Counted from the stretch's first letter, positions 9,141 to 44,471 are shown. The stretch: DNA of 64,000 nt from Firmicutes bacterium UBA3738 (GCA_002372505.1 DFGY01000062.1:28322-92321); one strand, 5' to 3'. Program-made: numbers and translations. The notes: generated by a model from the letters alone, not told the origin.

Positions 9141-9770
9141 TTACTTCGTGCCGTAGAGTCTGTCGCCTGCATCTCCCAGTCCGGGGACGATGTAAGCGTT
9201 CTCATTTAGGCGCTCGTCCTTGGCTGCTATGTAAATGTCGATGTCCGGGTGGGCTTCCTGCAGAGCCTGGATTCCTTCGGGAGCTGCAATGAGGCACATG
9301 AATGTAATGTTCTTGCCCCCCAGCTTCTTGATGAAGTCCACTGCTGCTACTGCACTGCCGCCGGTGGCCAGCATTGGGTCAACTACGAAGATTCTTCTGC
9401 TGGTCAGGTCCTCGGGCATCTTGCAGTAATAGTCGTGAGGCTCGTGAGTCACCGGGTCGCGGTAAAGGCCTACGTGGCCGACTTTCGCCGTGGGAATGAG
9501 CTCCAGCAGTCCTTCCACCAGTCCCAGGCCTGCTCTTAAGATCGGCACGATGGCGATGGATTTGCTGGGAAGCATCTTCACCGTAGTGGGACAAATGGGT
9601 GTCTCGATTTCCTTTTCTTCCAGATCCAGGTCTCGGAGGGCCTCATAGCCCATGAGGAGAGAAATCTCCTTAACGAGCTCGCGGAAATCCTTTGTGTTGG
9701 TTTCCTTCATTCTCAGCATTGCTGTCTTGTGCTGGATTAACGGGTGATCAGATACATATACTTTTCCCAT
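9141..9770 (-). CDS. upp: Uracil phosphoribosyltransferase
   Basis: [16 protein letters not shown]-terminus, PRPP-binding [12 protein letters not shown]-terminal [15 protein letters not shown]. Confidence 0.95.
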
Positions 9771-9791
9771 AAGTCTTCTCCTTCCTTGTGC

Positions 9792-10226
9792 CTACATTTC
9801 GTCGAGCATGTCAGTGCGGTTCTTGTGTCTTCCGCCTTCGAACTCAGTATTCAGCCAGGCTTCCAATATTTCAAGAGCCAGTGTGGTCTCTGTCAGGCGG
9901 CCGCCCAGAGCCAGCATGTTGGCGTTGTTGTGCTGCCGGGAAAGCTTGGCCATTTCCACGGAAGTGCACAGGGCGCACCTGATTCCTTTGACTTTGTTGG
10001 CGGCAATGGAAATGCCTATGCCGCTGCCGCAGACGACGATTCCCCGGTCAGCCTTGCCTGAGGCAACCATCTCCGCGCACTTTTTTCCAAAAAGGGGATA
10101 GTCAACGGACACGGGGGAATCCGTACCGCAGTCTATCACCTCCACATCTTTCGAAAACAAATAACCTATGATTATTTCCTTTAGTTCAAAGCCGCCATGA
10201 TCGCTGGCGACGGCTATTTTCTCCAT
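9792..10226 (-). CDS. rpiB: Ribose-5-phosphate isomerase B
   Basis: IAVASDHGGFELK and GIVVCGSGIGISIAANK motifs; 144 aa. Confidence 0.93.
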   Translation of the reverse strand: MEKIAVASDHGGFELKEIIIGYLFSKDVEVIDCGTDSPVSVDYPLFGKKCAEMVASGKADRGIVVCGSGIGISIAANKVKGIRCALCTSVEMAKLSRQHNNANMLALGGRLTETTLALEILEAWLNTEFEGGRHKNRTDMLDEM

Positions 10227-16491: not shown

Positions 16492-16914
16492 TCAGAGCTT
16501 TTTTATTTGTCTTGTCTCATTCTGAAAGTCGATCTCGGCCCCCTCTTCAGCTACTGCCAGTTTTATGAACAGCTTTTCTTTTTTGCCGATTTTAATATCG
16601 TGCACATGATGGTACAATTCCATCAGCGTCCTTTCCCACATAGCAAAGGAAGCATGCTCTAAATAGCTCTTGTTCCTTATTTTCATGATAATATTGCCAT
16701 TAGTCTCCATTTCAGCCTTTTCTCCGACCGCCATGATGCCCAGTGCTTTTTTCCCTTCACCCACCGATAATCCGGTATTCCCGGTTGCTTCATCCATGAG
16801 CCATCTGCCCGCTTCTTCAGAGTCGGTAAACTCTCTCCATTTTTCTTCATCTGCGCCATTCATTATTACCTTAAGAGTTTCGGTGACTTTTACTGTTCCT
16901 GTTTTTTCGCTCAT
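16492..16914 (-). CDS. Hypothetical protein (140 aa)
   Basis: ATG at 16914. Preceded by the shared operator plus an extended -10 (TGTATAAT). No recognisable motif. Confidence 0.65.
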   Translation of the reverse strand: MSEKTGTVKVTETLKVIMNGADEEKWREFTDSEEAGRWLMDEATGNTGLSVGEGKKALGIMAVGEKAEMETNGNIIMKIRNKSYLEHASFAMWERTLMELYHHVHDIKIGKKEKLFIKLAVAEEGAEIDFQNETRQIKKL

Positions 16915-16978
16915 ATTATTTTTCCTTTCTTGTTGCTATTGGATCATCTTTTCTATGATTGAATTATACAAATACAAA

Positions 16979-16995
16979 GCTCAATTTTTTGAGCA
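16979..16995. promoter_or_regulatory. Operator palindrome site 1 (GCTCAA-N4-TTGAGCA), 10 nt upstream of a TATAAT facing the 140-aa gene
   Basis: Minus strand reads TGCTCAAAAAATTGAGC-TTTGTATTTG-TATAAT. About 35 nt are shared with site 3. Confidence 0.7.
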
Positions 16996-16996
16996 T

Positions 16997-18526
16997 TTAC
17001 CGGTTATTCGTTTTTTCTTTCAGATATTTCCGCACGATTTCTACATCCTCCGGCAATGCAGGGCGATTGTATTTCTGCACCATCTGCCTGATGCAATATG
17101 CCCCTCTTTCGCGCCCGAATTCGATGGTATATTCACGCCCATCTATGTCCCAGTGAAAAATTGCTATTTTGTCATTACGCACTTTGCTCCTATAGTTAAA
17201 CACACAATTGTGTTGTCTTTCTCCTTCATCATATAGTGCAGGCGTACTGTCGATCATTTTGAAGTCGTCAGGCAGCAGCTCTTTCAGTTCAAGAAACTTG
17301 CTGTCTTCTGCCAGCAAGGGCTGTTTGAACTCTGCTTCATTTATCTGAGCATAGCGAACCATCTGATCCCTTGCAGCGTCATGGGCATTTTCCAGAGCAC
17401 GTGGCCTGGTTTTTCGGAGAGAGATGAGTTCTCCCGTATCTATACAAAGCTCTCCGTAGTCTCTTGCAATGAATTCGAACCTTTTGAATATTCTTTTCGG
17501 TATATCTTCAGCTGTCTCGAACAATCTGTTAGCATAATATCGTACTAAAAAATCTGACAAAGCCCACTTGATCATTACAGGGTCTGAAAAGTTCTTCACA
17601 CCGGCGCCAATCCATTCCATGAATTCATCCTTCGGAATCGATAGAAGCAATCCCCAGTCAGCCGGCTTTATGAATTCAGCAACCTTCGTCACATACCAGG
17701 AATAATTCATGTTTTTTCTGTTGTAGTTGATCATTAAAGGCTGTTCTGATTCGCCTCTGATCAGTTCATCCGGCGTTCTGTATTTACATGCGTCGTGAAT
17801 CTTGATGGGGTTTGCGAAGTAGTGGTCACTTCTTATTGTCCTTGCAACATCTTTAAGTATCTTCTTTTCTTCGCCCAACATCATAAAGATGTCGGCCAGC
17901 ACATTTCTGAAACTTTCATTGCGCATGAGCAACCTGTTGAGAAATGAAGTGAATCTGAAATAGTAAAAAGTGTTATTGAATCCACTCCAGTACAGTTCAC
18001 CATCCTCTCTTAAATGCATGTTCAATACTGGTCTGTACGTTGTCTTGACTTTCATGGCCGGCTTACCATATGTGCTGCGAAATTCAATCCCTGTTATGGG
18101 ATGGAATACAAGCGTTATGTAATCCATATAGCCGGAAGGCATCTTTTTCTTTTTCAGAGCTACAAGCATATCAAGTTCTAACATCTTCTTTTTTTCCACT
18201 GACTCATCGTAATAATTCATGTATATGTTGTGTGGTGCTCCGGCTTTTTTGAAAAAATCACTTTCCAGACTTGTCCAATAGTCATAATACCAGTCCCATC
18301 TTTCAGTATTGTAAAAGTAGTCGACATTGCTTTTGCGACCGCCGAATACATATTTCGAATCATGATGGTCATAGTATCTTGACACTATTTCTTTTACTGT
18401 ATTTATATCCATTTCAGCGCTCACTTTCTCTTTGATCTTTACTATCGGATTCTTTCTTGTTCTTACTGTCTGTCTCTTTGTCCTGATCCAATATGTCCAG
18501 GATGTCGCCACATGGGGTTTCTCCAT
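16997..18526 (-). CDS. PcfJ-like domain protein (509 aa)
   Basis: The C-terminal DEGERQHNCVFNYRSKVRNDKIAIFHWDIDGREYTIEF resembles the PcfJ-family C-terminal motif (EG..xHCV..Y...G...I). This is a recognition-level call. Starts 3 nt after the upstream stop. Confidence 0.55.
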   Translation of the reverse strand: MEKPHVATSWTYWIRTKRQTVRTRKNPIVKIKEKVSAEMDINTVKEIVSRYYDHHDSKYVFGGRKSNVDYFYNTERWDWYYDYWTSLESDFFKKAGAPHNIYMNYYDESVEKKKMLELDMLVALKKKKMPSGYMDYITLVFHPITGIEFRSTYGKPAMKVKTTYRPVLNMHLREDGELYWSGFNNTFYYFRFTSFLNRLLMRNESFRNVLADIFMMLGEEKKILKDVARTIRSDHYFANPIKIHDACKYRTPDELIRGESEQPLMINYNRKNMNYSWYVTKVAEFIKPADWGLLLSIPKDEFMEWIGAGVKNFSDPVMIKWALSDFLVRYYANRLFETAEDIPKRIFKRFEFIARDYGELCIDTGELISLRKTRPRALENAHDAARDQMVRYAQINEAEFKQPLLAEDSKFLELKELLPDDFKMIDSTPALYDEGERQHNCVFNYRSKVRNDKIAIFHWDIDGREYTIEFGRERGAYCIRQMVQKYNRPALPEDVEIVRKYLKEKTNNR

Positions 18527-18529
18527 ATA

Positions 18530-19456
18530 TCAATTCAAAGCCACCTTTGCGATGCTGTTTACGATGTGCTCGCTGCGTTCTCTTATAAGCCGCGCCGCGG
18601 TACTGAAAAATGTTTTCCAGTCTTCATCATTATCGGGATATGGTATTTCCAGCGAATGCCCCGGGAAGAACGGTATTGGCAGATAGTTTTCATCGACCAT
18701 AGACAGCAGCATATTCTTCTCAACAAATGTTCTCCAGCATCCGAAGTGATCCAGCCATGCTTTGGCATACGATATCTCTCTTTTGCCTTCATCCCGGCTC
18801 TTTATACAAAACAGTTTCCTGAGCGGATCGGTATCCGGTATCGTCTGATCCCTATTCGGATCGTGACTGGTGTGGATATCATAATACTCTTTGATTGCCA
18901 TGAGGCAAAGATCCGTCTGGTCATAAGCCGCAAGATAATCAGGTGCTCCGGTGTAGCCTGTCCTTGCGCAGTTGAATCCTCTGGGCACCGGCATGAAGTT
19001 GCCGATAGTATGGCTTACTGCGAGGAAATCCATCGCACCGGCTTTTTCAAGTCTGGCACGACACTCTTTCGAGAATTCTCCCTCTGCTGACAGCAGCTGA
19101 TAAGTGCCTGTCTTTTTTCCGCAAGACAGCCCGAGAAATTTCTTTAACGGTGACCATGCAGATGTAAGCGTATCGCTGAATTCCGCGAGATTCTCAGCTT
19201 CTCTTCTTACCGGGAATTCATCGAGGATCTGCTTTGAATAATCAGAGCTGTCACAGTCAAACAGCCTTATCTCACTGGATGCGCAGATATTGCCCATGAG
19301 CCAGTACAGACATATCTTCTGCAGCGGATCCAGTGCATCCCAGTCACTGCCGATGCTATCCTTTATATCACAGACATGATCGAGCCATCTCATCATCTCG
19401 CCACCTATCTCGTTTTTCACATCGTATTGTGCATTAATTTTTTTGTTGTTTTTCAT
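18530..19456 (-). CDS. Hypothetical protein (308 aa)
   Basis: ATG at 19456 with an AAAGGAAAA RBS. Tightly packed within the operon. No recognisable motif. Confidence 0.65.
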   Translation of the reverse strand: MKNNKKINAQYDVKNEIGGEMMRWLDHVCDIKDSIGSDWDALDPLQKICLYWLMGNICASSEIRLFDCDSSDYSKQILDEFPVRREAENLAEFSDTLTSAWSPLKKFLGLSCGKKTGTYQLLSAEGEFSKECRARLEKAGAMDFLAVSHTIGNFMPVPRGFNCARTGYTGAPDYLAAYDQTDLCLMAIKEYYDIHTSHDPNRDQTIPDTDPLRKLFCIKSRDEGKREISYAKAWLDHFGCWRTFVEKNMLLSMVDENYLPIPFFPGHSLEIPYPDNDEDWKTFFSTAARLIRERSEHIVNSIAKVALN

Positions 19457-19502
19457 TGTTTTTTCCTTTCTATTCTATCTCTTACGAACCACAATAACTT
19501 GT

Positions 19503-20048
19503 CTATCTGGAACCCCTTATTTCTTGCATTACCCCTATCGACTCTTTTGCCTTGTCAAAATCCAGGGTTCCACAGATATATCCGACTATGGAGTAGCACA
19601 GATCGCCCATCATATGCGGGCAAAAGTTTAGAATGTACCACATCGTATCAGTGAAATATTTCTCTAGCATTTCATATCTGATAAGCGTTCCGCTGTATAC
19701 GTCTTTGTTTTCTTCATCGTATATAATCGTGCGGTCATACAGCGTATCCATCTGATATGTTACATTGCCATTTATATAATTCATGATGCGCGCCGCTCTC
19801 TCATCGCCATGCCCGTCTTCAGCCTCTATTGGCTGGCAATAGTATGTCTGGCAATACATGTGTTCATCTTTGAACCTGATGCTTGTCTCGACCACTTTGC
19901 TGATCACATTGTCATCTTCAGTGGCAAAATACAGAGTATCAATATCCTCCATATCTTTCAGACAGCCGTCTTCATTCAGCGGTCTGTACCCTATATTTGC
20001 TTTTTTGAAGTAATCTTTTACAAGCGACAGTGCTTCTTTCTTGTTCAT
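19503..20048 (-). CDS. Hypothetical protein (181 aa)
   Basis: The ATG at 20048 directly abuts the stop of the small upstream ORF (TAAATG). No confident family assignment. Confidence 0.65.
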   Translation of the reverse strand: MNKKEALSLVKDYFKKANIGYRPLNEDGCLKDMEDIDTLYFATEDDNVISKVVETSIRFKDEHMYCQTYYCQPIEAEDGHGDERAARIMNYINGNVTYQMDTLYDRTIIYDEENKDVYSGTLIRYEMLEKYFTDTMWYILNFCPHMMGDLCYSIVGYICGTLDFDKAKESIGVMQEIRGSR

Positions 20049-20192
20049 TTACATCTCCCCTCTCATCACTTTGTTCAGATTATTTATGGCGATTTTCCTT
20101 ATTTCTTTTTTTATTACTTTTTCGTATTCTGCGTTGCCTTTCTGTGTTTTGACATGATTAAGTTCGAATAACAAGCTTTTCATTTTGCTCAT
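20049..20192 (-). CDS. Small basic ORF (47 aa; MSKMKSLLFELNHVKTQKGNAEYEKVIKKEIRKIAINNLNKVMRGEM), not in the supplied ORF track
   Basis: Translated by hand. Strong RBS AAAGGAGG 7 nt before the ATG at 20192. The stop TAA is immediately followed by the ATG of the next gene. Confidence 0.5.
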   Translation of the reverse strand: MSKMKSLLFELNHVKTQKGNAEYEKVIKKEIRKIAINNLNKVMRGEM

Positions 20193-20239
20193 ATGAGATA
20201 CCTCCTTTCGTAATTTCTGATTCAATTATATCTATGCGA

Positions 20240-20257
20240 TGCTCAAAAAATTGAGCA
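20240..20257. promoter_or_regulatory. Operator palindrome site 2 (TGCTCAAAAAATTGAGCA), 10 nt upstream of a TATAAT facing the minus-strand four-gene operon
   Basis: Minus strand reads TGCTCAATTTTTTGAGC-ATCGCATAGA-TATAAT, then the RBS and the ATG at 20192. Confidence 0.7.
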
Positions 20258-20361
20258 TTGATATCTTTTTTGGGAGATTATTATTAAATTTTTTGAAACG
20301 GCGGCATCAAAGCACATATTTCGCATATCGCTTAATAAAAGTGCAGGAACTGCTGGATTTA

Positions 20362-20370
20362 TGCTATAAT
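20362..20370 (+). promoter_or_regulatory. Extended -10 (TGCTATAAT) for the HipA-like gene
   Basis: TGnTATAAT lies 30 nt upstream of the ATG at 20400 and is followed by RBS AAAGGAGGAG. Confidence 0.5.
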
Positions 20371-20399
20371 ACTGAGAACATCGGAAAGGAGGAGCGCGA

Positions 20400-21419
20400 A
20401 TGAAACTGCACATAATGTCCGCAGATAATGAAGTGGCGGTGTTGACTGATTCAGGTCTCACCATTATTGATCCTGCGCTCTGTCCTATGTTCATCAAGAG
20501 AACAAACGATGTCCACACATGGATCAGTAGCAGAGCTATAGAGGGCGTCCGTTCGAATTCCCGCATACTGAAAAAAGTCCATGGGCTGTCTCGTTTCGCT
20601 TCTGACTACGATACTGCTATGGCTTACAATGCGGCCTGCGTCACGGATAACTTCTGGGTCCGCACAGGATCCGAGACATGGGACGATATCCGGTTCACTA
20701 ATGATATCTACTTTCGCATGGCTCTGGACAGTGACAACGAAATGATAGGCAAAGCTCCTTCAAGAACGCCGGAGCTTACCAATATCGGCACACAGGAAAA
20801 AGGCTGGCGCCTCATCGGTGATGAATGGTGGCTATACAAAAGAGAGCCGGACTTTCAGCAAAAGGCAGAAATCCTGACATACCGCATTGGCCGGTTGCTG
20901 GGTTTTGATATGGCGCACTACGAGATGGATGGCGACTATATCCGCACTCTCGATTTCACAAAAGGCGAATATAATCTCCAGCATGCTGACGCTGTAATGC
21001 ACGGCAAGCTGGAAGATGATTATGAATATAATTACGATAAGCTGATGGCAATGGGTCCGGCACTTGCCTCACAGTATCTGGACATCATTTACCTTGACTC
21101 ACTGATGAACAACGTTGATCGCCATCTGAAGAATTACGGCTTTCTCACTTCGCAGGAGGATGGCAGCATTATCAAAATGGCGCCAAACTACGATAACAAC
21201 ATGAGTCTGTACGGATACCCCGGATGTCTTGGCAGTGACCGGTGCGGCGGATTGATGAAGTTCTTTACAGATTTCCTGACAAACAAAGGCATCAAATACG
21301 AGACACCCGAACTGAAAAAAAATGATCTGCTGGATCTTTGCAAAGGATTTGACAGGCCGGAAGAACTGGTCCGCTACATAATGGCCGGACAGGAAGTCGT
21401 GCAGCAATGTTGTGTGTAA
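20400..21419 (+). CDS. HipA-family serine/threonine kinase-like protein (short, 339 aa)
   Basis: GTQEKGW (HipA P-loop-like GxQxK motif), catalytic-loop NNVDRHLKNYGFL (compare HipA DxHxKN), and APNYDNN. Confidence 0.7.
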   Translation: MKLHIMSADNEVAVLTDSGLTIIDPALCPMFIKRTNDVHTWISSRAIEGVRSNSRILKKVHGLSRFASDYDTAMAYNAACVTDNFWVRTGSETWDDIRFTNDIYFRMALDSDNEMIGKAPSRTPELTNIGTQEKGWRLIGDEWWLYKREPDFQQKAEILTYRIGRLLGFDMAHYEMDGDYIRTLDFTKGEYNLQHADAVMHGKLEDDYEYNYDKLMAMGPALASQYLDIIYLDSLMNNVDRHLKNYGFLTSQEDGSIIKMAPNYDNNMSLYGYPGCLGSDRCGGLMKFFTDFLTNKGIKYETPELKKNDLLDLCKGFDRPEELVRYIMAGQEVVQQCCV

Positions 21420-21540
21420 AATCAAAACACACTCCAACTGTTGCAGGTAATTGTACTCTTTTCACATTATCCATTTTAGGTTAAGAGTGCTTTGCCAAAT
21501 AAGTTTGATCTCCGACATATAACGGAACGAAAGGGATAAT

Positions 21541-22776
21541 ATGAAAATGAAAGATAAATGGTTCGAACGAGGTGGATTTCTTTATGATATAACGAAGGAG
21601 TATGGGCGGTTAAGGAAAAAGGACATCAAGGACATCATAGATAATCCAAATAATAATAAATCTGATCTTGATTTTTATGAAATCCTTTTTCTTAATAACC
21701 TTGATAATGTCGCCAAAAATTTTATTACTCGTAGAATCCCCAAAAATGTTAACTCTGTGTCTATTTTTCATACGTGCTTTAATTGGAAGAGTCAAAATAA
21801 TAATGAAAAGAAATTACCTATTATTGATGAATTAAAATCATTTGCAAACACAAACTTTATATATAAACTTCCGGGTGATTGGGATACGGATAGATTGTTG
21901 AGATATTCTTTTCGATGGGATGCTGCACCTAATTATTGGCCACATGTTGAACAACTGCGTTATTCAATTTGTGAAATTAAGAAAAACTATCCACAATATA
22001 ATTATAATAATTGGAATGCAGTTGCAACAAAATCAAGCAGCGCAGAAAAATGGATTCTAAAGGGCAATAATAAAGACACTAGTATGGAAATAGAACTCTC
22101 CTCAGATATATGTACCGGCAAATCTATTGTGGCCGATATTAGTATTATCCCTAGCATGACAAAAAATATTGGACCGAAAAAATTAAAGGAATACATATCT
22201 GATAATGTCAACAAGTTTTATTATCTTGAACCTTTTCTTAATGTGATGTACACATGTGGAAATATGACAACAATACCAAATATAAAAGGATCTAATAAAG
22301 GCGGAGGCAATGATCGCTGGGACGCAAAACTACAAAATATTAAAGACTTTATTGTGGAAGGCAAAGGGAAAAAAATAGGAATAACTTTATACGAAATCTA
22401 CAATAAGAAAAACGAACCCTGGAAACAATACGTCATCGAGCATTATATGAACGACTATGTAAACAAAGACTGGAATGTAAAAAATATTCAATCACCAGAG
22501 GTTGTGTTACAGAAAGATGAAGAACCATCAGCTCGCGGAAACGAAGAAACCTTTTATATAAACGCTGCTAAACTCATCATCCAGCGTGGTTACCGTATAT
22601 ACTATCAATACGAACGAGATAACGAGGGAAAAATCAAATATAAAGATGACAAGCCAGTCAGAAACAAAGACCTCTTCAATGAGGATCTATCTTTCATATG
22701 CAAAGCCAAAGATGAATTGCAAGAAGCATTTAAAGCAGTCGGGATTCCGGAAAACAAACTAGATATAATAGAATAA
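21541..22776 (+). CDS. Hypothetical protein (411 aa), markedly AT-rich gene
   Basis: The ORF has an AAAGGGA RBS. The first 60 nt hold 20/60 G+C by hand count. N/K/I/Y-rich with no recognisable motif. Confidence 0.65.
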   Translation: MKMKDKWFERGGFLYDITKEYGRLRKKDIKDIIDNPNNNKSDLDFYEILFLNNLDNVAKNFITRRIPKNVNSVSIFHTCFNWKSQNNNEKKLPIIDELKSFANTNFIYKLPGDWDTDRLLRYSFRWDAAPNYWPHVEQLRYSICEIKKNYPQYNYNNWNAVATKSSSAEKWILKGNNKDTSMEIELSSDICTGKSIVADISIIPSMTKNIGPKKLKEYISDNVNKFYYLEPFLNVMYTCGNMTTIPNIKGSNKGGGNDRWDAKLQNIKDFIVEGKGKKIGITLYEIYNKKNEPWKQYVIEHYMNDYVNKDWNVKNIQSPEVVLQKDEEPSARGNEETFYINAAKLIIQRGYRIYYQYERDNEGKIKYKDDKPVRNKDLFNEDLSFICKAKDELQEAFKAVGIPENKLDIIE

Positions 22777-22777
22777 C

Positions 22778-22806
22778 CGGTGGTCACGTAGCTTGCATGA
22801 CCACCG
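22778..22806. terminator. Bidirectional terminator hairpin between convergent genes
   Basis: CGGTGGTCA-11 nt-TGACCACCG, a perfect 9-bp stem, between the stop at 22776 (+) and the stop at 22839 (-). Confidence 0.6.
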
Positions 22807-22838
22807 ATTAGAGAGCACAGAGTATCCTTTGAAAACTC

Positions 22839-23993
22839 TTACTTTTTCCCCTCTTTCATAACCCCATACATCTCAGCCATCTGTTTGATCCTGTTTTGTA
22901 TTTCTTCCCTGACTTCCTCAGGTTCCAGGACTTCCATCTTTTCTGCATGCTGAAGAGCGAAGTTTATCATTCCGTAAGGAGAACACAACACTTGGACCAG
23001 ATCGTAGTTCTTGTCGTTCTTATCAGGTCCGAGATATTCGTACTTGTCACCAAAAGCGGCGAACAAAAAATTGTATTCAGGCTCGATGGATTTCCCGTAC
23101 TGATCTTTTTTACTTAGTACTCTTAGCGTCATGTACTGCGGCTTATCGTAAGACATACCAAGATGTGTAAGTGTATATTCCGAATCCCAATGCTGAGGCA
23201 TATTTTCGACTTCTCTCTTAGGTATCCGTTTCGATTCTGTTTTGCTTACATCCGACATAAGATCCACGCGCAGTATATATGTGTTCTTGTATTTTTCGTT
23301 TGCTGCCAGCAGATAGTATTTCCCATCATTGGCCACAATATAGTACGGACTGGCAATCCTTTCATAATTACCCGCAGGAGCCAGTTTTCTTTCACGTGTG
23401 TACCCGTTGAATCTATATTTGATCTGGACATTTTCATCTATAGCCTGTTGTATCGTCCTGAGGTTGTCTCTCAGCTGCTGTATGTCATATTTCGGGGTCT
23501 CATATATCTTGCAGACATTACTGGCGCTTGCTTTGTAGTGTTTAGAAGCGAATTTTTCTTCAAGTGTCTTTATCAGTTTATCCGCTCTTTCCGGTTCCAT
23601 GGTACGAGAGAAGTTTATGGCTTCTACCATACTGCTGATATCTTCATGAGAAAACTCGGGATTATAATACAGATTACTCACTTGAAGATAATCTTTTTCA
23701 AATTCTTCTGTATCACCAGCTTCCCCGTACACAGCTTTGTAATCATCAAAAACGATTCGCCAGTCATCGTCCGGAAGAGGTATATCATTCTCATCCAGAT
23801 TCATTGCATCTGCAAGATTAACAAGAAATGTATGCACCGTAGTCCGGTTGCCCAGGTTAATATTCTTTCCTTCGAAATACTCTCTTATATCCTTTAGATT
23901 GATTTTGTGATCCGGATCCGGATCCGTATTTTTCTTAAGATACTCCAGAAACATAATAGTGCGTCTGGTCTGATTTATCTTTTCCCCTTTCAT
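22839..23993 (-). CDS. HTH + WYL-domain transcriptional regulator (BrxR/CapW/PafBC-like architecture)
   Basis: N-terminal winged-helix-like region (RRTIMFLEYLKKNT...LKDIREYF). Central WYL-like core (ASPYYIVANDGKYYLLAANEKYKNTYILRVDLMSDV). Strong RBS GGGAGGA. Divergent from the AAA+ gene and shares operator site 3. Confidence 0.6.
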   Translation of the reverse strand: MKGEKINQTRRTIMFLEYLKKNTDPDPDHKINLKDIREYFEGKNINLGNRTTVHTFLVNLADAMNLDENDIPLPDDDWRIVFDDYKAVYGEAGDTEEFEKDYLQVSNLYYNPEFSHEDISSMVEAINFSRTMEPERADKLIKTLEEKFASKHYKASASNVCKIYETPKYDIQQLRDNLRTIQQAIDENVQIKYRFNGYTRERKLAPAGNYERIASPYYIVANDGKYYLLAANEKYKNTYILRVDLMSDVSKTESKRIPKREVENMPQHWDSEYTLTHLGMSYDKPQYMTLRVLSKKDQYGKSIEPEYNFLFAAFGDKYEYLGPDKNDKNYDLVQVLCSPYGMINFALQHAEKMEVLEPEEVREEIQNRIKQMAEMYGVMKEGKK

Positions 23994-24054
23994 AATGATC
24001 CTCCCTGAAACAAAGGCTTGTGGATTTTTCGCCTCTTTATATTATATCATGTAC

Positions 24055-24071
24055 GCTCAAAAAATTGAGCA
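24055..24071. promoter_or_regulatory. Operator palindrome site 3 (GCTCAAAAAATTGAGCA) in the divergent WYL / AAA+ promoter region
   Basis: Plus direction reads TTGAGC-ATTGTATTTG-TATCAT. Minus direction reads TTGAGC-GTACATGA-TATAAT. Confidence 0.7.
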
Positions 24072-24127
24072 TTGTATTTGTATCATTATAGCATAATCTA
24101 CATTTCAAACAATCAGCGGAGGGAAAA

Positions 24128-26179
24128 ATGATATTAAAAAAAATTGAATTTGAAATAGCCAGCAAGGAAATATCACAAGCTGTATCCGGCAGATTCGATA
24201 ACGACTATTCAAAGCGTGTAGAATACATCCGTTTGCTGGGAAGTCTGAATGAGCAGCTGATGAAATCATTCAAAGGATCCGGTAATACTTTTTTTGCGGC
24301 GCTGACTAAAGGAGTGGATAACAGGATGTCTGCCATTTTAGCTTATGACATCAAAACCCACACTGAACAGGAATGCATATCGATCATTTCAAAAGTTATA
24401 GGCAAAGCCAAGATACTTTCCTGCCGTGAAATCACGATCACGGACTTTTCAGCGAAGCTGGGAGAGGTAGAAGGTATTCCAACAAACTCCATTATTCACA
24501 CACTTGGTCTGGACATATATGCCACTGCTTCCCTTTTTCATAGTCCTGCGTATGAAATATCTGAAGACATCAAGGACAAGAAAAGATACCCTAAAGAAAA
24601 GTGTCTTATGGAAGCGAAAAAAATCATGGCATCAAAAAGTTTTTTGGATGAAATAAGCCGGATCTATTCAAGGAAAAACACAAGGAAATACTACGGCCAC
24701 CCTGTGCACTATTACATTTCTGCCGGCTCCTGCGGAGCTGCAAAAGATATCACTGATATTCTAATTACAGCACTTCTGCACAACAACAGACTTCCCGGGG
24801 GCCGAGTCACAACAGTCAGCAACATTACTGATAAAGCATCGAAAGAAGTCAACTTCAAAAACATATTTCCGTCATGCCGTGGCGGCACCGTGATCGTAGA
24901 TCTTTCAGCGGAATACGAGATAAACAACTACGCAACAGGATATTTATCAATTGCAAAGGAACTGGGTAATCAGCTCGGCAAATACGGAAATGATACCCTG
25001 TTCATTTTCGTCGACATATCCGGCAGCTCAGTGATACGCGGCGAGACTCTGACAGGGATCCTGGCAAACGGAGATATAATTGAGATCGAAGAGGGCTACG
25101 GCGACTACCGGCAGGCAGTTTCATATCTCCGTGATCTGGCGCAAAGAAGCGAATTCAGTCAGTACGCCGACGATGATCTGCAAACTTATCTTCCCGAAAA
25201 AGAATCATATAATGTTTCTGATATTTTTTTCGCTTACGAGAGATGGTACGGCAAGGGGCTCAAAACTCATATTTATCCTGCTTATGCCGAAATAGATACA
25301 TATCATATCGAGGCCGAAAAACCGAAGAGCAGACCCTATGACAAACTGATGGAAATGATCGGGCTCGATGATATAAAAAAGACCATTGACCGGGTCATAG
25401 ATTCATCAAAGATCCAGACTATACGGCATGACATGGGATTATCGTCCGTCGTTACCCTTCCCCATATGATGTTCTACGGCAATCCCGGCTCTGCGAAAAC
25501 CAGCGTTGCCAGGCTGATGGCTCAGATTCTCAAAGAAGAAGGGGTTCTAAAAAGCGGCCATCTCGTCGAATGTTCCCGAAGCGACTTGGTCGGAAAGTAT
25601 GTGGGATGGACCGCTCAAATAGTAGAAGACAAATTCAAATCTGCCAAAGGTGGTATACTGTTCATAGACGAGGCTTATTCCCTTGCCGATGGCAGCAATA
25701 CTTACGGACAGGAAGCAATCAATATGATAGTTCAGCTGATGGAGAACTACAGAAACGATGTTCTGGTCGTCTTTGCAGGATATCCGGAGAAAATGAAAGA
25801 CTTCATCCGCACCAACGAAGGTCTGAAGAGCAGGATCGCCTTTCATCTGCATTTTAAAGATTATGACCCTGAGGAGATGGTCAGCATACTCAAGCTGATG
25901 GCCAAAGAAAAGGAATTGAATCTCACTGCAGGAGCACTAAATAAATGCAGATCCGTTTTCGAAGAAGTCTGCTGTCTCTCTGATTTTGGCAATGGAAGAT
26001 ACGCCCGGAATCTCCTAGAACAGGCTCAGATGAATCAAGCGGAAAGGCTCTTTCGGATCGGCGAACCAAAAGAGATTACAAAAGAAGATATCAAGTTGAT
26101 AAAAGCATGCGACATAGAATCCGTGAAGCAGATGGGCAATGAACCTGAAAAAATCAAAAAAATTGGATTCAGTATATAA
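24128..26179 (+). CDS. AAA+ ATPase (SpoVK/CbbX-type C-terminal module) with a long N-terminal region holding a degenerate second NTPase-like module
   Basis: Walker A GNPGSAKTS and Walker B GGILFIDEAYSL in the C-terminal module. The N-terminal YYISAGSCGAAKD...GGTVIVDL looks like a decayed P-loop/Walker B pair. Confidence 0.8.
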   Translation: MILKKIEFEIASKEISQAVSGRFDNDYSKRVEYIRLLGSLNEQLMKSFKGSGNTFFAALTKGVDNRMSAILAYDIKTHTEQECISIISKVIGKAKILSCREITITDFSAKLGEVEGIPTNSIIHTLGLDIYATASLFHSPAYEISEDIKDKKRYPKEKCLMEAKKIMASKSFLDEISRIYSRKNTRKYYGHPVHYYISAGSCGAAKDITDILITALLHNNRLPGGRVTTVSNITDKASKEVNFKNIFPSCRGGTVIVDLSAEYEINNYATGYLSIAKELGNQLGKYGNDTLFIFVDISGSSVIRGETLTGILANGDIIEIEEGYGDYRQAVSYLRDLAQRSEFSQYADDDLQTYLPEKESYNVSDIFFAYERWYGKGLKTHIYPAYAEIDTYHIEAEKPKSRPYDKLMEMIGLDDIKKTIDRVIDSSKIQTIRHDMGLSSVVTLPHMMFYGNPGSAKTSVARLMAQILKEEGVLKSGHLVECSRSDLVGKYVGWTAQIVEDKFKSAKGGILFIDEAYSLADGSNTYGQEAINMIVQLMENYRNDVLVVFAGYPEKMKDFIRTNEGLKSRIAFHLHFKDYDPEEMVSILKLMAKEKELNLTAGALNKCRSVFEEVCCLSDFGNGRYARNLLEQAQMNQAERLFRIGEPKEITKEDIKLIKACDIESVKQMGNEPEKIKKIGFSI

Positions 26180-26181
26180 AA

Positions 26182-26199
26182 TGCTCAATTTTTTGGGCA
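26182..26199. promoter_or_regulatory. Operator palindrome site 4 (TGCTCAATTTTTTGGGCA, one arm mismatch), 10 nt upstream of a TATAAT
   Basis: TTGGGC-ATACGGTCGC-TATAAT, then RBS AAAGGAG and the ATG at 26265. Confidence 0.6.
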
Positions 26200-26264: not shown

Positions 26265-26642
26265 ATGAGTAACAAAAGAAAATACGAACCTATCGAGACT
26301 TATCGCTACAATAATGTTTGTAAGAATTGCAAAAACATCTATTATTATTTTAAAGACGAAGAATATGCTATAATTAAATGCGAGCATAATGTGGCGACCT
26401 GCCTGCTCAACGGAGCCATGCAATTTGTTTATCGGAAACCCGGAGAAGAACTAATCAAATCTGAAGTGCCCCTGCATATTTGTAAGAATTGCAAAAACAC
26501 ATATTATGATTTAGAAGACGACGGATATGTTCTTAAATGCAGGCATAATATGGCAGGCTGCCTGTCCAACGATGCCACGCATTTTGTTTACCGGAAACCC
26601 GGAGAGGAAATCGCCAAATCCGATGTGATTCTATCCGAATAA
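26265..26642 (+). CDS. Small Cys-rich protein with two tandem zinc-ribbon-like repeats (125 aa)
   Basis: Internal duplication: CKNCKNIYYYFKDEEYAIIKCEHNVATCL..FVYRKPGEE versus CKNCKNTYYDLEDDGYVLKCRHNMAGCL..FVYRKPGEE. The ATG at 26265 with RBS is preferred over the TTG at 26220. Confidence 0.7.
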   Translation: MSNKRKYEPIETYRYNNVCKNCKNIYYYFKDEEYAIIKCEHNVATCLLNGAMQFVYRKPGEELIKSEVPLHICKNCKNTYYDLEDDGYVLKCRHNMAGCLSNDATHFVYRKPGEEIAKSDVILSE

Positions 26643-26681
26643 TTCGTATATTGTTATAAATGATAAGGACAGGGAATTGAA

Positions 26682-26960
26682 ATGTTTGATAATAAAGTAA
26701 TCAAGAAAATAATAGCTTCAGGATGTGATGAGTCTTTTATAGAGGATGTGCATTCTTTATTCGATATTGTTCGATGTGATGACTGCCATACCCAAAAAGA
26801 AAAAGAACTCATCGTTTACAATTGTAAAAGCACTGTGGAAAGAATCAATGCTGTGGCAGAAGAGAAAGGCTTTGAAAGGTTTTATACAAAAGATGAACAC
26901 ATCGATTTTGAGAAAGATTTAAGAGATTATGTATTGGGCGTAGTCAAGCAAATGATGTAA
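26682..26960 (+). CDS. Hypothetical small protein (92 aa)
   Basis: ORF in the same operon; contains CDDCH and further Cys residues. No family recognised. Confidence 0.55.
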   Translation: MFDNKVIKKIIASGCDESFIEDVHSLFDIVRCDDCHTQKEKELIVYNCKSTVERINAVAEEKGFERFYTKDEHIDFEKDLRDYVLGVVKQMM

Positions 26961-26981
26961 TAATTCAGGAGATCAAATGAT

Positions 26982-27614
26982 ATGGAGAAAAAGATTCTGG
27001 CTTTGACAAAAGACGGAAAGTTAGCATTTTGCTCAGCAAAACCAGATGGTAGATGCAAAGACAGGTGCGATCACGCAGACCACCAAAAGTTTTATCAGAC
27101 AGCTCAGGATTTTATAACGCAATTAGGCATGAACGGGATCAAGCTTGAGAAAGATGATGAAATAAAGAGAGCTGTGTATTTAAAACGGAATATTGAAAAT
27201 CTGCACTTTCCAACAGATTATCATAAGAAATTGAAAGAAGATATCAGTTGGATAAAATATATCATTACTAACAATCCGGCACAGGAAAAGAACTCGAGAA
27301 TAATAAAAAACTATTATGAGTTCATTTACAAGTCTGATGCACTATTTGCAGTAATAGGCTATAGCGCATCAGGTATTAAAGATAAGCAAGAACAATATAA
27401 GCAGATAGATAGCAAGCGAAGAGATTTTCATAATGCCACACTTGGAGCTTTTGCTTCTATGGTTGCAGATTGCAAGCAAAAAATCGGTATAGATATTTAT
27501 GACAAAGATTATAAAGAGATATTAAAAGCACAGAGTGAATACGGAGGGGAACGAACCAGGGTCGCCAACTATCTGTATGATGTCATCAAATATTATAATG
27601 ATGTTGACGATTAG
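26982..27614 (+). CDS. Hypothetical protein (210 aa) with an N-terminal Cys/His cluster
   Basis: CSAKPDGRCKDRCDHADH cluster near the N-terminus. RBS AGGAGA upstream. Confidence 0.6.
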   Translation: MEKKILALTKDGKLAFCSAKPDGRCKDRCDHADHQKFYQTAQDFITQLGMNGIKLEKDDEIKRAVYLKRNIENLHFPTDYHKKLKEDISWIKYIITNNPAQEKNSRIIKNYYEFIYKSDALFAVIGYSASGIKDKQEQYKQIDSKRRDFHNATLGAFASMVADCKQKIGIDIYDKDYKEILKAQSEYGGERTRVANYLYDVIKYYNDVDD

Positions 27615-27647: not shown

Positions 27648-27785
27648 GAAAAACAGGGGTAATTAGGGGGTATATTATGGATTTCCGCCAAAATGAAAAA
27701 TCCTCGGAACGCTTGAATTTCCAAGGATTTTTTTATGGTCGGAGAGACAGGATTTGAACCTGCGGCCACCTGACCCCCAGTCAGG
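27648..27785 (-). repeat. att-like copy C: the 3' 50 nt of tRNA-Pro (27736-27785, identical) plus a copy of its terminator/flank
   Basis: 27736-27785 is identical to 44395-44444. 27648-27735 is near-identical to 44307-44394. Confidence 0.9.
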
Positions 27786-31106: not shown

Positions 31107-31150
31107 TTGCAAGTTGTCAAAGTAGGTTTTCCAAGGATTATTGATGGCCT

Positions 31151-31252
31151 AAGAGACAGGATTGGCAGCCTGCGGCCACCTGACCCCCAGTCAGTACTTA
31201 GTTGCTTATTTTTCAATGGCTATACGGTTTATGGCAACCTATATGGCAACCT
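31151..31252 (-). repeat. att-like copy E: degenerate tRNA-Pro 3' fragment plus type-2 arm (TATGGCAACC x2)
   Basis: AAGAGACAGGATTGGCAGCCTGCGGCCACCTGACCCCCAGTCAG, followed by TACTTAGTTGCTTATTTTTCAATGGCTATACGGTTTATGGCAACCTATATGGCAACC. Confidence 0.8.
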
Positions 31253-35966: not shown

Positions 35967-36145
35967 AGGGGGGTATATTATGGATTTCCGTCAAAAAGAA
36001 AAAACCTCGGAATGCTTGAAATTCCAAGGATTTTTTGATTGTCGGAGAGACAGGATTTGAACCTGCGGCCACCTGACCCCCAGTCAGTACTTGGCTGCTT
36101 ATTTTTCAATGGCTGCACGGTTTATGGCAACCTATATGGCAACCC
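35967..36145 (-). repeat. att-like copy B: terminator-flank copy + tRNA-Pro 3' 47 nt (36041-36087) + type-2 arm (TATGGCAACC at 36123 and 36135)
   Basis: Direct alignment to 44320-44441 and to the arms of copies D and E. Confidence 0.9.
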
Positions 36146-36938: not shown

Positions 36939-37051
36939 CTCGTTTCCCTCCATTACTTGATTATATAGCATTTATTTACCCTGCACAATTACTATGATTT
37001 AGAAACAAGCAAAAACCCTTGGAAAAAGTACATTTTTCAACGGTTTTATTC

Positions 37052-37158
37052 TGGTCGGAGAGACAGGATTTGAACCTGCGGCCACCTGACCTCCAGTCAG
37101 GTCTTGGCTGCTTATTTTTCAATGGCTGCACGGTTTATGGCAACCTATGTGGCAACCC
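37052..37158 (-). repeat. att-like copy D: tRNA-Pro 3' 50 nt (one mismatch) + type-2 arm
   Basis: 37052-37101 matches 44395-44444 except for the T at 37092. The arm TCTTGGCTGCTTATTTTTCAATGGCTGCACGGTTTATGGCAACCTATGTGGCAACCC follows. Confidence 0.9.
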
Positions 37159-44299: not shown

Positions 44300-44354
44300 G
44301 GTTAGGGAAAAACAGGGGTAATTAGGGGGTATATTATTGATTTCCGTCAAAAAG

Positions 44355-44391
44355 AAAAATCCTCGGAATGCTTGAACTTCCAAGGATTTTT
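44355..44391 (-). terminator. Terminator of tRNA-Pro
   Basis: Minus strand reads AAAAATCCTTGGAA-9 nt-TTCCGAGGATTTTT followed by CTTTTT. Confidence 0.75.
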
Positions 44392-44394
44392 TGC

Positions 44395-44471
44395 TGGTCG
44401 GAGAGACAGGATTTGAACCTGCGGCCACCTGACCCCCAGTCAGGTGCGCTACCAAACTGCGCCACTCCCCG
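44395..44471 (-). tRNA. tRNA-Pro (anticodon GGG), CCA encoded
   Basis: Folded by hand as a 77-nt cloverleaf. Acceptor CGGGGAG/CTCTCCG, D arm GCGC-AGTTTGGTA-GCGC, anticodon arm CCTGA-CTGGGGG-TCAGG, variable TGGCC, T arm GCAGG-TTCAAAT-CCTGT, then A-CCA. Confidence 0.92.

Follow-up and report, generated by a model that had tools for sequence, protein, structure and literature searches.

Genes of the island

The DNA analysed here is a 64,000-nucleotide (nt) stretch of the genome of Firmicutes bacterium UBA3738 (GCA_002372505.1, DFGY01000062.1:28322-92321; hereafter the window, meaning the whole stretch). It contains an island of accessory genes around the gene of a WYL-domain transcription factor, and several promoters of this island carry an 18-bp palindrome at a fixed distance from their -10 box. 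The island comprises the following genes (aa, amino acids):

16492-16914, minus strand: 140-aa gene, no function assigned; target of palindrome site 1
16997-20192, minus strand: operon of palindrome site 2, encoding proteins of 47, 181 and 308 aa and a PcfJ-like protein of 509 aa
16997-18526, minus strand: PcfJ-like gene (Pfam), 509 aa, in the site 2 operon
18530-19456, minus strand: 308-aa gene in the site 2 operon, with a weak, sub-threshold match to DUF6994
19503-20048, minus strand: 181-aa gene in the site 2 operon
20049-20192, minus strand: 47-aa gene, first in the site 2 operon
20400-21419, plus strand: HipA-like gene (HipA_C, kinase-like; Pfam), with a palindrome-free extended -10, TGcTATAAT, at 20362-20370
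21541-22776, plus strand: 411-aa gene after the HipA-like gene, no function assigned
22839-23993, minus strand: WYL gene, 384 aa, predicted winged helix-turn-helix (wHTH)-WYL-WCX architecture (Pfam WYL and WCX), proposed binder of the palindrome
24128-26179, plus strand: AAA+ ATPase gene, 683 aa (Pfam AAA and AAA_lid_6), with a C-terminal module of the SpoVK/CbbX/EccA type (NCBIfam) and an unassigned N-terminal 400 aa
26265-26642, plus strand: Zn-ribbon-like gene, 125 aa, with a weak, sub-threshold match to a YgiT finger
26682-26960, plus strand: 92-aa gene downstream of the Zn-ribbon-like gene
26982-27614, plus strand: 210-aa gene downstream of the 92-aa gene

We infer that the 125-, 92- and 210-aa genes (26265-27614) form one operon. 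The HipA-like and 411-aa genes lie outside the set of palindrome-associated genes and serve as an internal contrast.

Four palindromes at a fixed distance from the -10 box

A scan of the whole 64 kb with the pattern TGCTCAANNNNTTGAGCA (TGCTCAA-N4-TTGAGCA, at most two mismatches) found four palindromes, each with no more than one mismatch, compared to 0.44 expected by chance, and none of 100 shuffled sequences contained four. All of them fall between 16.9 and 26.2 kb, at most 10 kb from the WYL gene and within a stretch of lower GC content (~16-31 kb), and the other 54 kb of the window are free of copies. Weaker copies, sought in the window with up to three mismatches to the 12-nt core, show no surplus (26 seen vs. 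32 expected), which leaves a clean set of four sites. The palindromes and the promoters that they accompany are as follows, where TGn denotes the motif of an extended -10:

16978-16995, no strand: palindrome site 1, AGCTCAATTTTTTGAGCA, one mismatch, immediately 3' of the stop codon of the PcfJ-like gene
16963-16968, minus strand: site 1 promoter (TTGAGC, 10 nt, TATAAT), drives the 140-aa gene, without TGn and without a -35
20240-20257, no strand: palindrome site 2, TGCTCAAAAAATTGAGCA, perfect
20225-20230, minus strand: site 2 promoter (TTGAGC, 10 nt, TATAAT), drives the 47-aa/181/308/PcfJ operon
24054-24071, no strand: palindrome site 3, CGCTCAAAAAATTGAGCA, one mismatch, common to two divergent promoters
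24081-24086, plus strand: site 3 promoter (TTGAGC, 10 nt, TATCAT), drives the AAA+ gene, the weakest -10 of the set, without TGn and without a -35
24041-24046, minus strand: other face of site 3 (TTGAGC, 8 nt, TATAAT), the WYL gene's own promoter, out of phase, with the extended -10 TGaTATAAT (24041-24049)
26182-26199, no strand: palindrome site 4, TGCTCAATTTTTTGGGCA, one mismatch, immediately 3' of the AAA+ stop codon
26209-26214, plus strand: site 4 promoter (TTGGGC, 10 nt, TATAAT), drives the Zn-ribbon gene

The four palindromes serve five promoter faces, with a gap of 10 nt between half-site and -10 box in four of them and of 8 nt in that of the WYL gene. A start codon with a Shine-Dalgarno sequence follows each in-phase -10 of the window at a distance of 38-56 nt. 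Much of this had been noticed in a first reading of the same DNA (the original prediction), and our reading of the sequence agrees with it on the 10 nt followed by TATAAT or TATCAT at four promoters, on the 8 nt followed by TATAAT on the WYL-facing side of site 3, on the palindrome-free promoter of the HipA-like gene, and on the location of sites 1 and 4 directly after stop codons (16997-16999 and 26177-26179). Its five promoters sharing the palindrome are, more precisely, five faces served by four sites, and its positions are right for sites 2 and 4, whereas the 18-mers of sites 1 and 3 begin one base earlier than it gave. The sharing of sequence between sites 1 and 3 is also real, although it covers ~33 nt with three differences instead of the ~35 nt reported.

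The WYL protein

The WYL protein contains a WYL domain (Pfam PF13280, residues 177-249, E = 3.4e-8, 33.8 bits, cut-off 21.8) and a C-terminal WCX dimerisation domain (PF25583, residues 341-373, E = 1.1e-5, 26.1 bits, cut-off 23.9), and it is matched by the WYL model of PADLOC (1.4e-21). Its N-terminus has no Pfam helix-turn-helix match; in the AlphaFold2 (AF2) model of the protein (predicted local distance difference test score 76), this region forms helices at residues 8-22, 33-41 and 50-65, followed by short strands. Foldseek searches with the AF2 model gave full-length matches only to wHTH-WYL-WCX factors, namely PafBC (9fnd, 2e-10), DriD (2e-9), BrxR (1e-6), and CapW (6e-6), with alignments of 385-405 columns that include the N-terminus. 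The template modelling (TM) scores of these alignments are low (0.2-0.3), as would be expected if the several domains of such proteins are differently oriented. A profile search of solved structures by sequence with the WYL protein yielded nothing relevant. On the basis of the modelled structure, the protein is assigned to the fold class of WYL transcription factors, homodimers of which bind palindromic sites of ~18-25 bp, and we propose that it likewise acts as a dimer on the 18-bp palindrome.

Palindrome type follows the WYL clade at related loci

Homologues of the WYL protein (E ≤ 0.001) number 193, most of them ~400 aa long and from Clostridia metagenomes. An alignment-based scan of species-representative genomes, in which loci were collected via the WYL homologues, provided the 65 loci (designated L and a number) considered below. 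The scan for palindromes followed by a -10 was run in six versions with changing thresholds, and the counts from the later versions are descriptive and not tests.

Among the 65 loci, the core GCTCAA-N4-TTGAGC is confined to those encoding a WYL protein 44%-51% identical to that of the window. CTCAA-N4-TTGAG with a -10 at a fixed distance was found in L001 (two sites), L002, L003, L004 (two), L005, L008 (two), L009 (two), and L030, and in no other loci, and L006, a divergent member of this first clade, has the variant ATCCAA-N4-TTAGAT twice, both times 10 nt before TATAAT. Loci of a second, more distant clade, with WYL proteins 36%-39% identical, carry the palindrome GGCGGA-N4-TCCGCC (variants GGTGGA and CTCGGA) 11 nt before TATAAT. 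In the following, promoters of the window's type are called class A and those of the GGCGGA type class B. The gap is 10 nt in all 19 class A promoters, the 10-nt spacers of which are unrelated in sequence, and 11 nt in all 15 class B promoters. When perfect 6-N4-6 palindromes before TATAAT were sought without reference to the window motif, gaps of 10 nt (n = 8) and 11 nt (n = 6) stood out, with 0-1 cases at each of the other gaps between 4 and 19 nt.

The motif of the clade occurs in 9 of 10 loci inside it and 0 of 55 outside it (Fisher p = 3e-10, a descriptive value only, as the classes were set post hoc). Contig L030 harbours both WYL paralogues together with both palindrome types, and in L039 a symmetric site is flanked on either side by TATAAT at a gap of 11 nt. 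The putative recognition helix (model residues 50-65) contains clade-specific residues, which are different again in L006. Open reading frames (ORFs) with a Shine-Dalgarno sequence begin 36-80 nt downstream of most -10 boxes of palindromic promoters, and WYL is the sole gene common to all palindrome-bearing loci, the other neighbours being variable. By the criteria used and within the available flanks, no GGCGGA-type palindromic promoter was found in L013, L014, L023, L024, L028, L032, L036, L041, L042, L047, L048, L051, and L053; these 13 loci encode a class B-type WYL protein with the recognition-helix signature of the GGCGGA loci.

In viral contigs, the search for a palindrome, a gap and TATAAT returned nine stretches, all unrelated to WYL genes and none with a gap of 10 nt, and the palindromic element is not evidently phage-borne. 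Among the matches listed in a metagenome scan, chance matches predominated and the bulge at gaps of 9-11 nt was only modest, which makes the scan unusable as an unbiased test of spacing; these matches also included near-identical copies of the island (L121 and L153) and L005-like contigs, all too close for footprinting. L175/L178 was considered as a symmetric two-faced promoter and rejected, as it is a terminator between convergent genes in a Flavobacteria contig. As read from the sequences, the layout recurs in related gut Clostridia, with the operator changing along with the regulator.

Because the palindrome type tracks the WYL clade across the 65 loci, and a single contig (L030) contains both types and both paralogues, the WYL protein very probably binds the palindromes as operators. 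The proposal of the original prediction that the palindrome is a protein operator at promoters, with the WYL protein as the best candidate binder, is upheld in this respect. The palindrome could instead be bound by another factor, such as a host global regulator or a different island protein, with WYL as a mere neighbour. Several small island proteins without annotation would be available for this role, and the association with WYL is partly built in since the loci were collected via this protein. However, no gene other than WYL is shared by all palindrome-bearing loci, the palindrome type switches with the WYL clade even within L030, which a host factor would not explain, and all four sites of the window cluster within 10 kb of the WYL gene with none in the other 54 kb. 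We thus regard binding by another factor as quite improbable.

The palindromes as possible terminators

A further explanation is that the palindromes mark gene ends, as weak intrinsic terminators or RNA hairpins, and happen to lie near promoters. In its favour, sites 1 and 4 come immediately after stop codons, sites 1, 2, and 3 emerge as weak candidates from a terminator scan, the hairpins fold with -6.8 to -12.9 kcal/mol, and the mismatch of site 4 retains a G-U pair. Moreover, the same palindrome is a bidirectional terminator in the unrelated Flavobacteria contig L178. Yet sites 2 and 3 lie in divergent promoter regions into which no gene reads, site 4 has no U-tract, none of the sites has an Rfam match, and the 10-nt distance to the -10 in 19 of 19 promoters and the two-faced promoter of L039 are features at the DNA level. 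Intrinsic terminators have a G+C-rich stem and a U-tract at the end of a transcription unit, whereas the stems found here have 3-4 G-C pairs. The original prediction had itself raised the concern of a generic terminator, which finds no support in the fixed distances, the missing U-tract of site 4 and the divergent setting of sites 2 and 3; we consider a terminator function extremely unlikely as an explanation, with a minor, additional insulating role possible at sites 1 and 4. The best terminator candidate of the region lies at 22774-22810, where the 411-aa and WYL genes converge on a strong hairpin (15 pairs, 7 G-C).

Promoter anatomy

If the -10 box is placed at -12 to -7, the -35 slot is filled by the class A palindrome, which reaches from ~-38 to ~-23 around a dyad at -30.5; the class B dyad is at -31.5. 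The match to TTGACA at a distance of 16-18 nt does not exceed three of six bases in any of the 34 promoters, and a sigma-70 scan for two hexamers picked up none of the palindromic promoters of the window. The -10 is a perfect TATAAT in 31 of the 34 promoters, and TGn precedes it in 3 of the 19 promoters of class A and 10 of the 15 of class B. In the window, the two promoters that are out of phase or palindrome-free both have an extended -10 (WYL, TGaTATAAT; HipA-like, TGcTATAAT), whereas the four in-phase promoters are without it. No palindrome overlaps a -10, and the placement at a fixed distance is exact to the base pair.

A-rich tracts are found upstream of many sites. In many promoters of both classes, a TG dinucleotide follows the 7-nt palindrome arm after 7 nt. 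In class A this TG directly precedes TATAAT, and in class B a single base separates the two, which makes a true extended -10; the distance between TG and palindrome is thus constant and the -10 shifts by one base. Three other accounts of the arrangement were rejected. The half-site cannot represent a -35 for sigma-A or another sigma factor, as the 10-nt spacer is far too short; two overlapping promoters do not account for the palindrome, as most sites have a -10 on one face only; and a MerR-like arrangement would place a -35 upstream of the palindrome, where none is within reach.

Comparison with known WYL regulators

WYL regulators with palindromic operators are already known, and the architecture found in the window is closest to that of DriD. 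This protein of Caulobacter crescentus is a homodimeric wHTH-WYL-WCX activator gated by single-stranded DNA (PMC13004042, PMC9186387). [quoted passage not shown] If a 17-bp spacer is assumed, the DriD dyad, as inferred from the engineered -35 in the oligonucleotides of that study, corresponds to position 5 of the -35 slot, or ~-31 (PMC13004042). The WYL protein of the window is assigned to the same domain class, with DriD among its top Foldseek matches, and the likeness extends to the palindrome over the -35 slot, the fixed distance from the -10, the targets lacking a -35, the position of the dyad (-30.5 in class A and -31.5 in class B vs. ~-31 under this assumption), and the divergent regulator gene on a shared site. 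The two systems differ in that the proteins share 11%-16% sequence identity in structural alignments, that the window protein has ~60 more residues between the wHTH and the WYL domain, and that its site is 7-N4-7 (18 bp) rather than 7-N7-7 (21 bp). Furthermore, the window comes from a Clostridium-type host of low GC content whose -10 boxes follow the TATAAT consensus, the putative targets are uncharacterised genes of the island and not DNA-damage genes, and activation, the mode of action of DriD, is a proposal for the window protein.

Two other WYL activators show partial similarities. SiwR of Mycobacterium smegmatis is a homodimer that binds a ~19-bp imperfect palindrome just upstream of the -10 (PMC10693628). 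The location of this palindrome, between the -35 and -10 regions, and the divergent orientation of regulator gene and target operon resemble the arrangement in the window. SiwR differs in controlling just one operon, with no fixed phasing across several promoters documented, and in being actinobacterial with DinB-like targets. The mycobacterial PafBC, which acts by 'sigma adaptation', is the best Foldseek match (9fnd, 2e-10). According to a summary in PMC13004042, PafBC promoters have no -35 and contain a -26 element at a fixed short distance upstream of the -10. Both features resemble the window promoters; PafBC differs in being a heterodimer or fusion that places a single wHTH on a non-palindromic element and does not bind DNA without RNA polymerase. 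Outside the WYL family, a comparable replacement of the -35 by an activator site ending ~10 bp upstream of the -10 exists in the pho box of PhoB, although this is an unrelated protein family and the box consists of direct repeats instead of a palindrome.

BrxR and CapW, in contrast, are WYL repressors of bacteriophage exclusion (BREX) systems, cyclic oligonucleotide-based anti-phage signalling systems (CBASS), and defence islands (PMC9122589, PMC9122601, PMC9122588, PMC11662680). CapW binds across the -10 (PMC9122588), and BrxR occupies the positions from -51 to -27, which are centred near -39 and include a canonical -35 (PMC9122589). They share with the window protein the domain architecture (with a putative wHTH in the latter), the location of the regulator gene next to or inside the controlled unit and, as predicted for the latter, the binding of a palindromic operator as a homodimer and the control of neighbouring accessory or defence genes. 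They differ in the placement of their sites at the -10 or a canonical -35, in that fixed phasing over many promoters is not reported for them, and in their association with known defence systems, as no complete system of this kind is matched by the genes of the window.

Activation or repression

We prefer ligand-gated activation of the DriD kind by the WYL protein, a reading to which we give about an even chance. In this mechanism, a WYL dimer would bind the 7-N4-7 palindrome in place of the absent -35, with base-pair-exact spacing to the -10, and binding of a signal by the WYL domain (single-stranded DNA in characterised relatives) would enable the DNA-bound dimer to aid sigma-A RNA polymerase at promoters with a consensus -10, no -35 and, among those of class A, mostly no extended -10 either. 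The result would be joint induction of the 140-aa gene, the 47/181/308/PcfJ operon, the AAA+ gene, and the Zn-ribbon operon, with the regulator supplied from the out-of-phase, extended -10 promoter of the WYL gene. We lean towards activation because the geometry is shared with published WYL activators and because the phasing is exact to the base pair. The promoters show the architecture expected of the DriD type, with an identical distance to the -10 within each class, a covered -35 slot without consensus, and a dyad near -31.

Alternatively, the WYL protein may be a repressor of the BrxR/CapW kind. An unliganded dimer over the -35 region would then block RNA polymerase until a signal detaches it and derepresses all units, and the WYL gene would be under negative autoregulation. 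The evidence for binding serves this explanation equally well. The near-perfect -10 boxes, with TGn common in class B, should fire unaided, and the upstream A-rich tracts could act as UP elements. WYL genes are also often co-transcribed from a palindromic promoter or preceded by one (L001, L025, L030:658, L057), and BrxR likewise overlaps the -35 region (PMC9122589). However, a steric block does not require one-base-pair spacing across promoters with unrelated spacers, the BrxR target has a canonical -35 with the site centred near -39, and the in-phase promoters of the window lack both -35 and TGn; among them the AAA+ promoter, with its imperfect -10, would be weak even when derepressed. In CapW/BrxR-type regulation, the operator covers a functional core element, whereas here the -10 is left free, unlike with CapW, and the covered -35 slot contains no hexamer; this lowers the probability of membership in the CapW/BrxR family while remaining compatible with repression by occlusion. 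An adjacent, recognised anti-phage system, the other hallmark of this type, was not detected with PADLOC. Overall, we consider repression a realistic but doubtful explanation.

Several observations weigh against the preferred activation by a DriD-like mechanism and its evidential basis. With perfect TATAAT boxes in 31 of 34 promoters and TGn in 10 of 15 of class B, such promoters of Firmicutes are expected to fire unaided, as would fit a repressor. The usual layout of negative feedback is seen in most class A loci, where WYL is the distal gene of an operon with a palindromic promoter, and in class B, where WYL promoters often carry an in-phase site of their own, in some cases a degenerate one. 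Most characterised WYL regulators beside defence or mobile genes (BrxR, CapW) are repressors, and the order of the Foldseek matches, with activators above repressors, is weak evidence. The comparison of dyads with DriD depends on the assumed 17-bp spacer; for spacers of 16 or 18 bp, the DriD dyad would move by 1 bp. Finally, classes A and B and the clade-versus-motif test were defined after seeing the data, over six scan versions, the co-occurrence with WYL is partly built in by the way in which the loci were gathered, and several class B promoters are homologous copies and not independent.

The original prediction had interpreted the fixed phasing as that of a repressor operator overlapping the promoter. 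The geometry points the other way, as the sites never overlap a -10 and fill the -35 slot as in DriD (PMC13004042). Its suggestion that the WYL gene is autoregulated is plausible, but the WYL promoter is out of phase (8 nt), has an extended -10, and looks self-sufficient; from the promoter layout, the regulator could occlude it or could leave it untouched, as with driD.

Cargo genes and neighbouring regions

Searches of the cargo against Pfam, NCBIfam, PADLOC, and PHROGs identified only PcfJ, the sub-threshold DUF6994, HipA_C, AAA/AAA_lid_6, and SWIM. PADLOC found no complete known defence system in the cargo and returned only weak single-protein matches, of the HipA-like protein to the candidate PDC-M03A and of the AAA+ protein to IetA; NCBIfam did not add a defence system either, and no phage module was recognised with PHROGs. 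Literature searches on DUF6994, on PcfJ, and on WYL with Lachnospiraceae gave nothing useful on cargo function. The HipA-like and 411-aa pair (20400-22776), which includes the protein with the PDC-M03A match, sits in the middle of the regulon.

Homologues of the 308-aa protein, with its weak match to DUF6994, adjoin the WYL gene in 12 loci (L010, L012, L014, L021, L041, L042, L047, L048, L051, L054, L056, and L061), and the 308-aa-type gene and the WYL gene may be a conserved pair. In L002, a calcineurin-like metallophosphatase gene (9208-9945; Pfam Metallophos, 2e-15) is located immediately upstream of the WYL gene, overlapping it or nearly so. ORFs of similar size occupy this position in L004 (9215-9928), L005 (9143-9856), and L009 (9211-9924), and their upstream sequences look related; the Pfam scan covered the L002 gene. 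The window has no metallophosphatase gene at WYL and has the HipA-like kinase nearby instead. Relatives of the AAA+ protein with ~945 aa and two separate matches to the window ATPase are encoded in L004 (6321-9167), L030 (3953-6796), L015 (11531-14185), and L029 (4919-7567), and they appear to consist of two ATPase modules, or a fusion or adjacent pair, compared to the single module in the window.

Downstream of the island, the 3' part of a tRNA-Pro gene (44395-44471, minus strand), together with ~88 nt downstream of it, is repeated directly with 87%-98% identity:

27648-27785, 31129-31194, 35969-36087, 37035-37102, and 44307-44444: tRNA-Pro-derived direct repeats

These repeats divide the region from 27.8 to 44.3 kb into four segments, which contain a SWIM protein and a DUF4143 ATPase, a clostripain-like protease, a Zeta toxin, and ATP-binding cassette (ABC)/FecCD transport genes, respectively. 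No integrase gene is found between the repeats, and in the related contig L121 the WYL locus is directly joined to the tRNA-Pro region. From its sequence, the array looks like the result of serial insertion at the tRNA gene.

Implications

These results provide a concrete, testable regulon for an uncharacterised WYL regulator, in which four transcription units share an 18-bp operator and obey an exact rule of spacing. Related Clostridia use this promoter design as well, with operators that vary along with the regulator. As a broader and more tentative proposal, which we rate slightly short of an even chance, the large, uncharacterised family of ~400-aa WYL proteins in gut Clostridia would consist of signal-gated activators of the DriD kind with clade-specific operators placed to the base pair in the -35 slot. 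These would switch on sets of unassigned genes (SpoVK-like AAA+ ATPases, PcfJ-like, DUF6994-like, and metallophosphatase genes), possibly new stress-response or anti-phage modules, and natural, non-cross-reacting pairs of regulator and operator would coexist in one genome (L030). If repression should be true, the system would be a further case similar to BrxR and CapW, with an unusually strict geometry that itself needs explanation. If activation is true, the mechanism of DriD, the structural description of which so far concerns a single alphaproteobacterial protein, would also operate in Firmicutes and on mobile accessory genes, and the co-regulated unassigned genes would be candidates for a response induced by damage or phage. 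The clade-specific pairs of regulator and operator could also serve as orthogonal inducible promoters for gut anaerobes.

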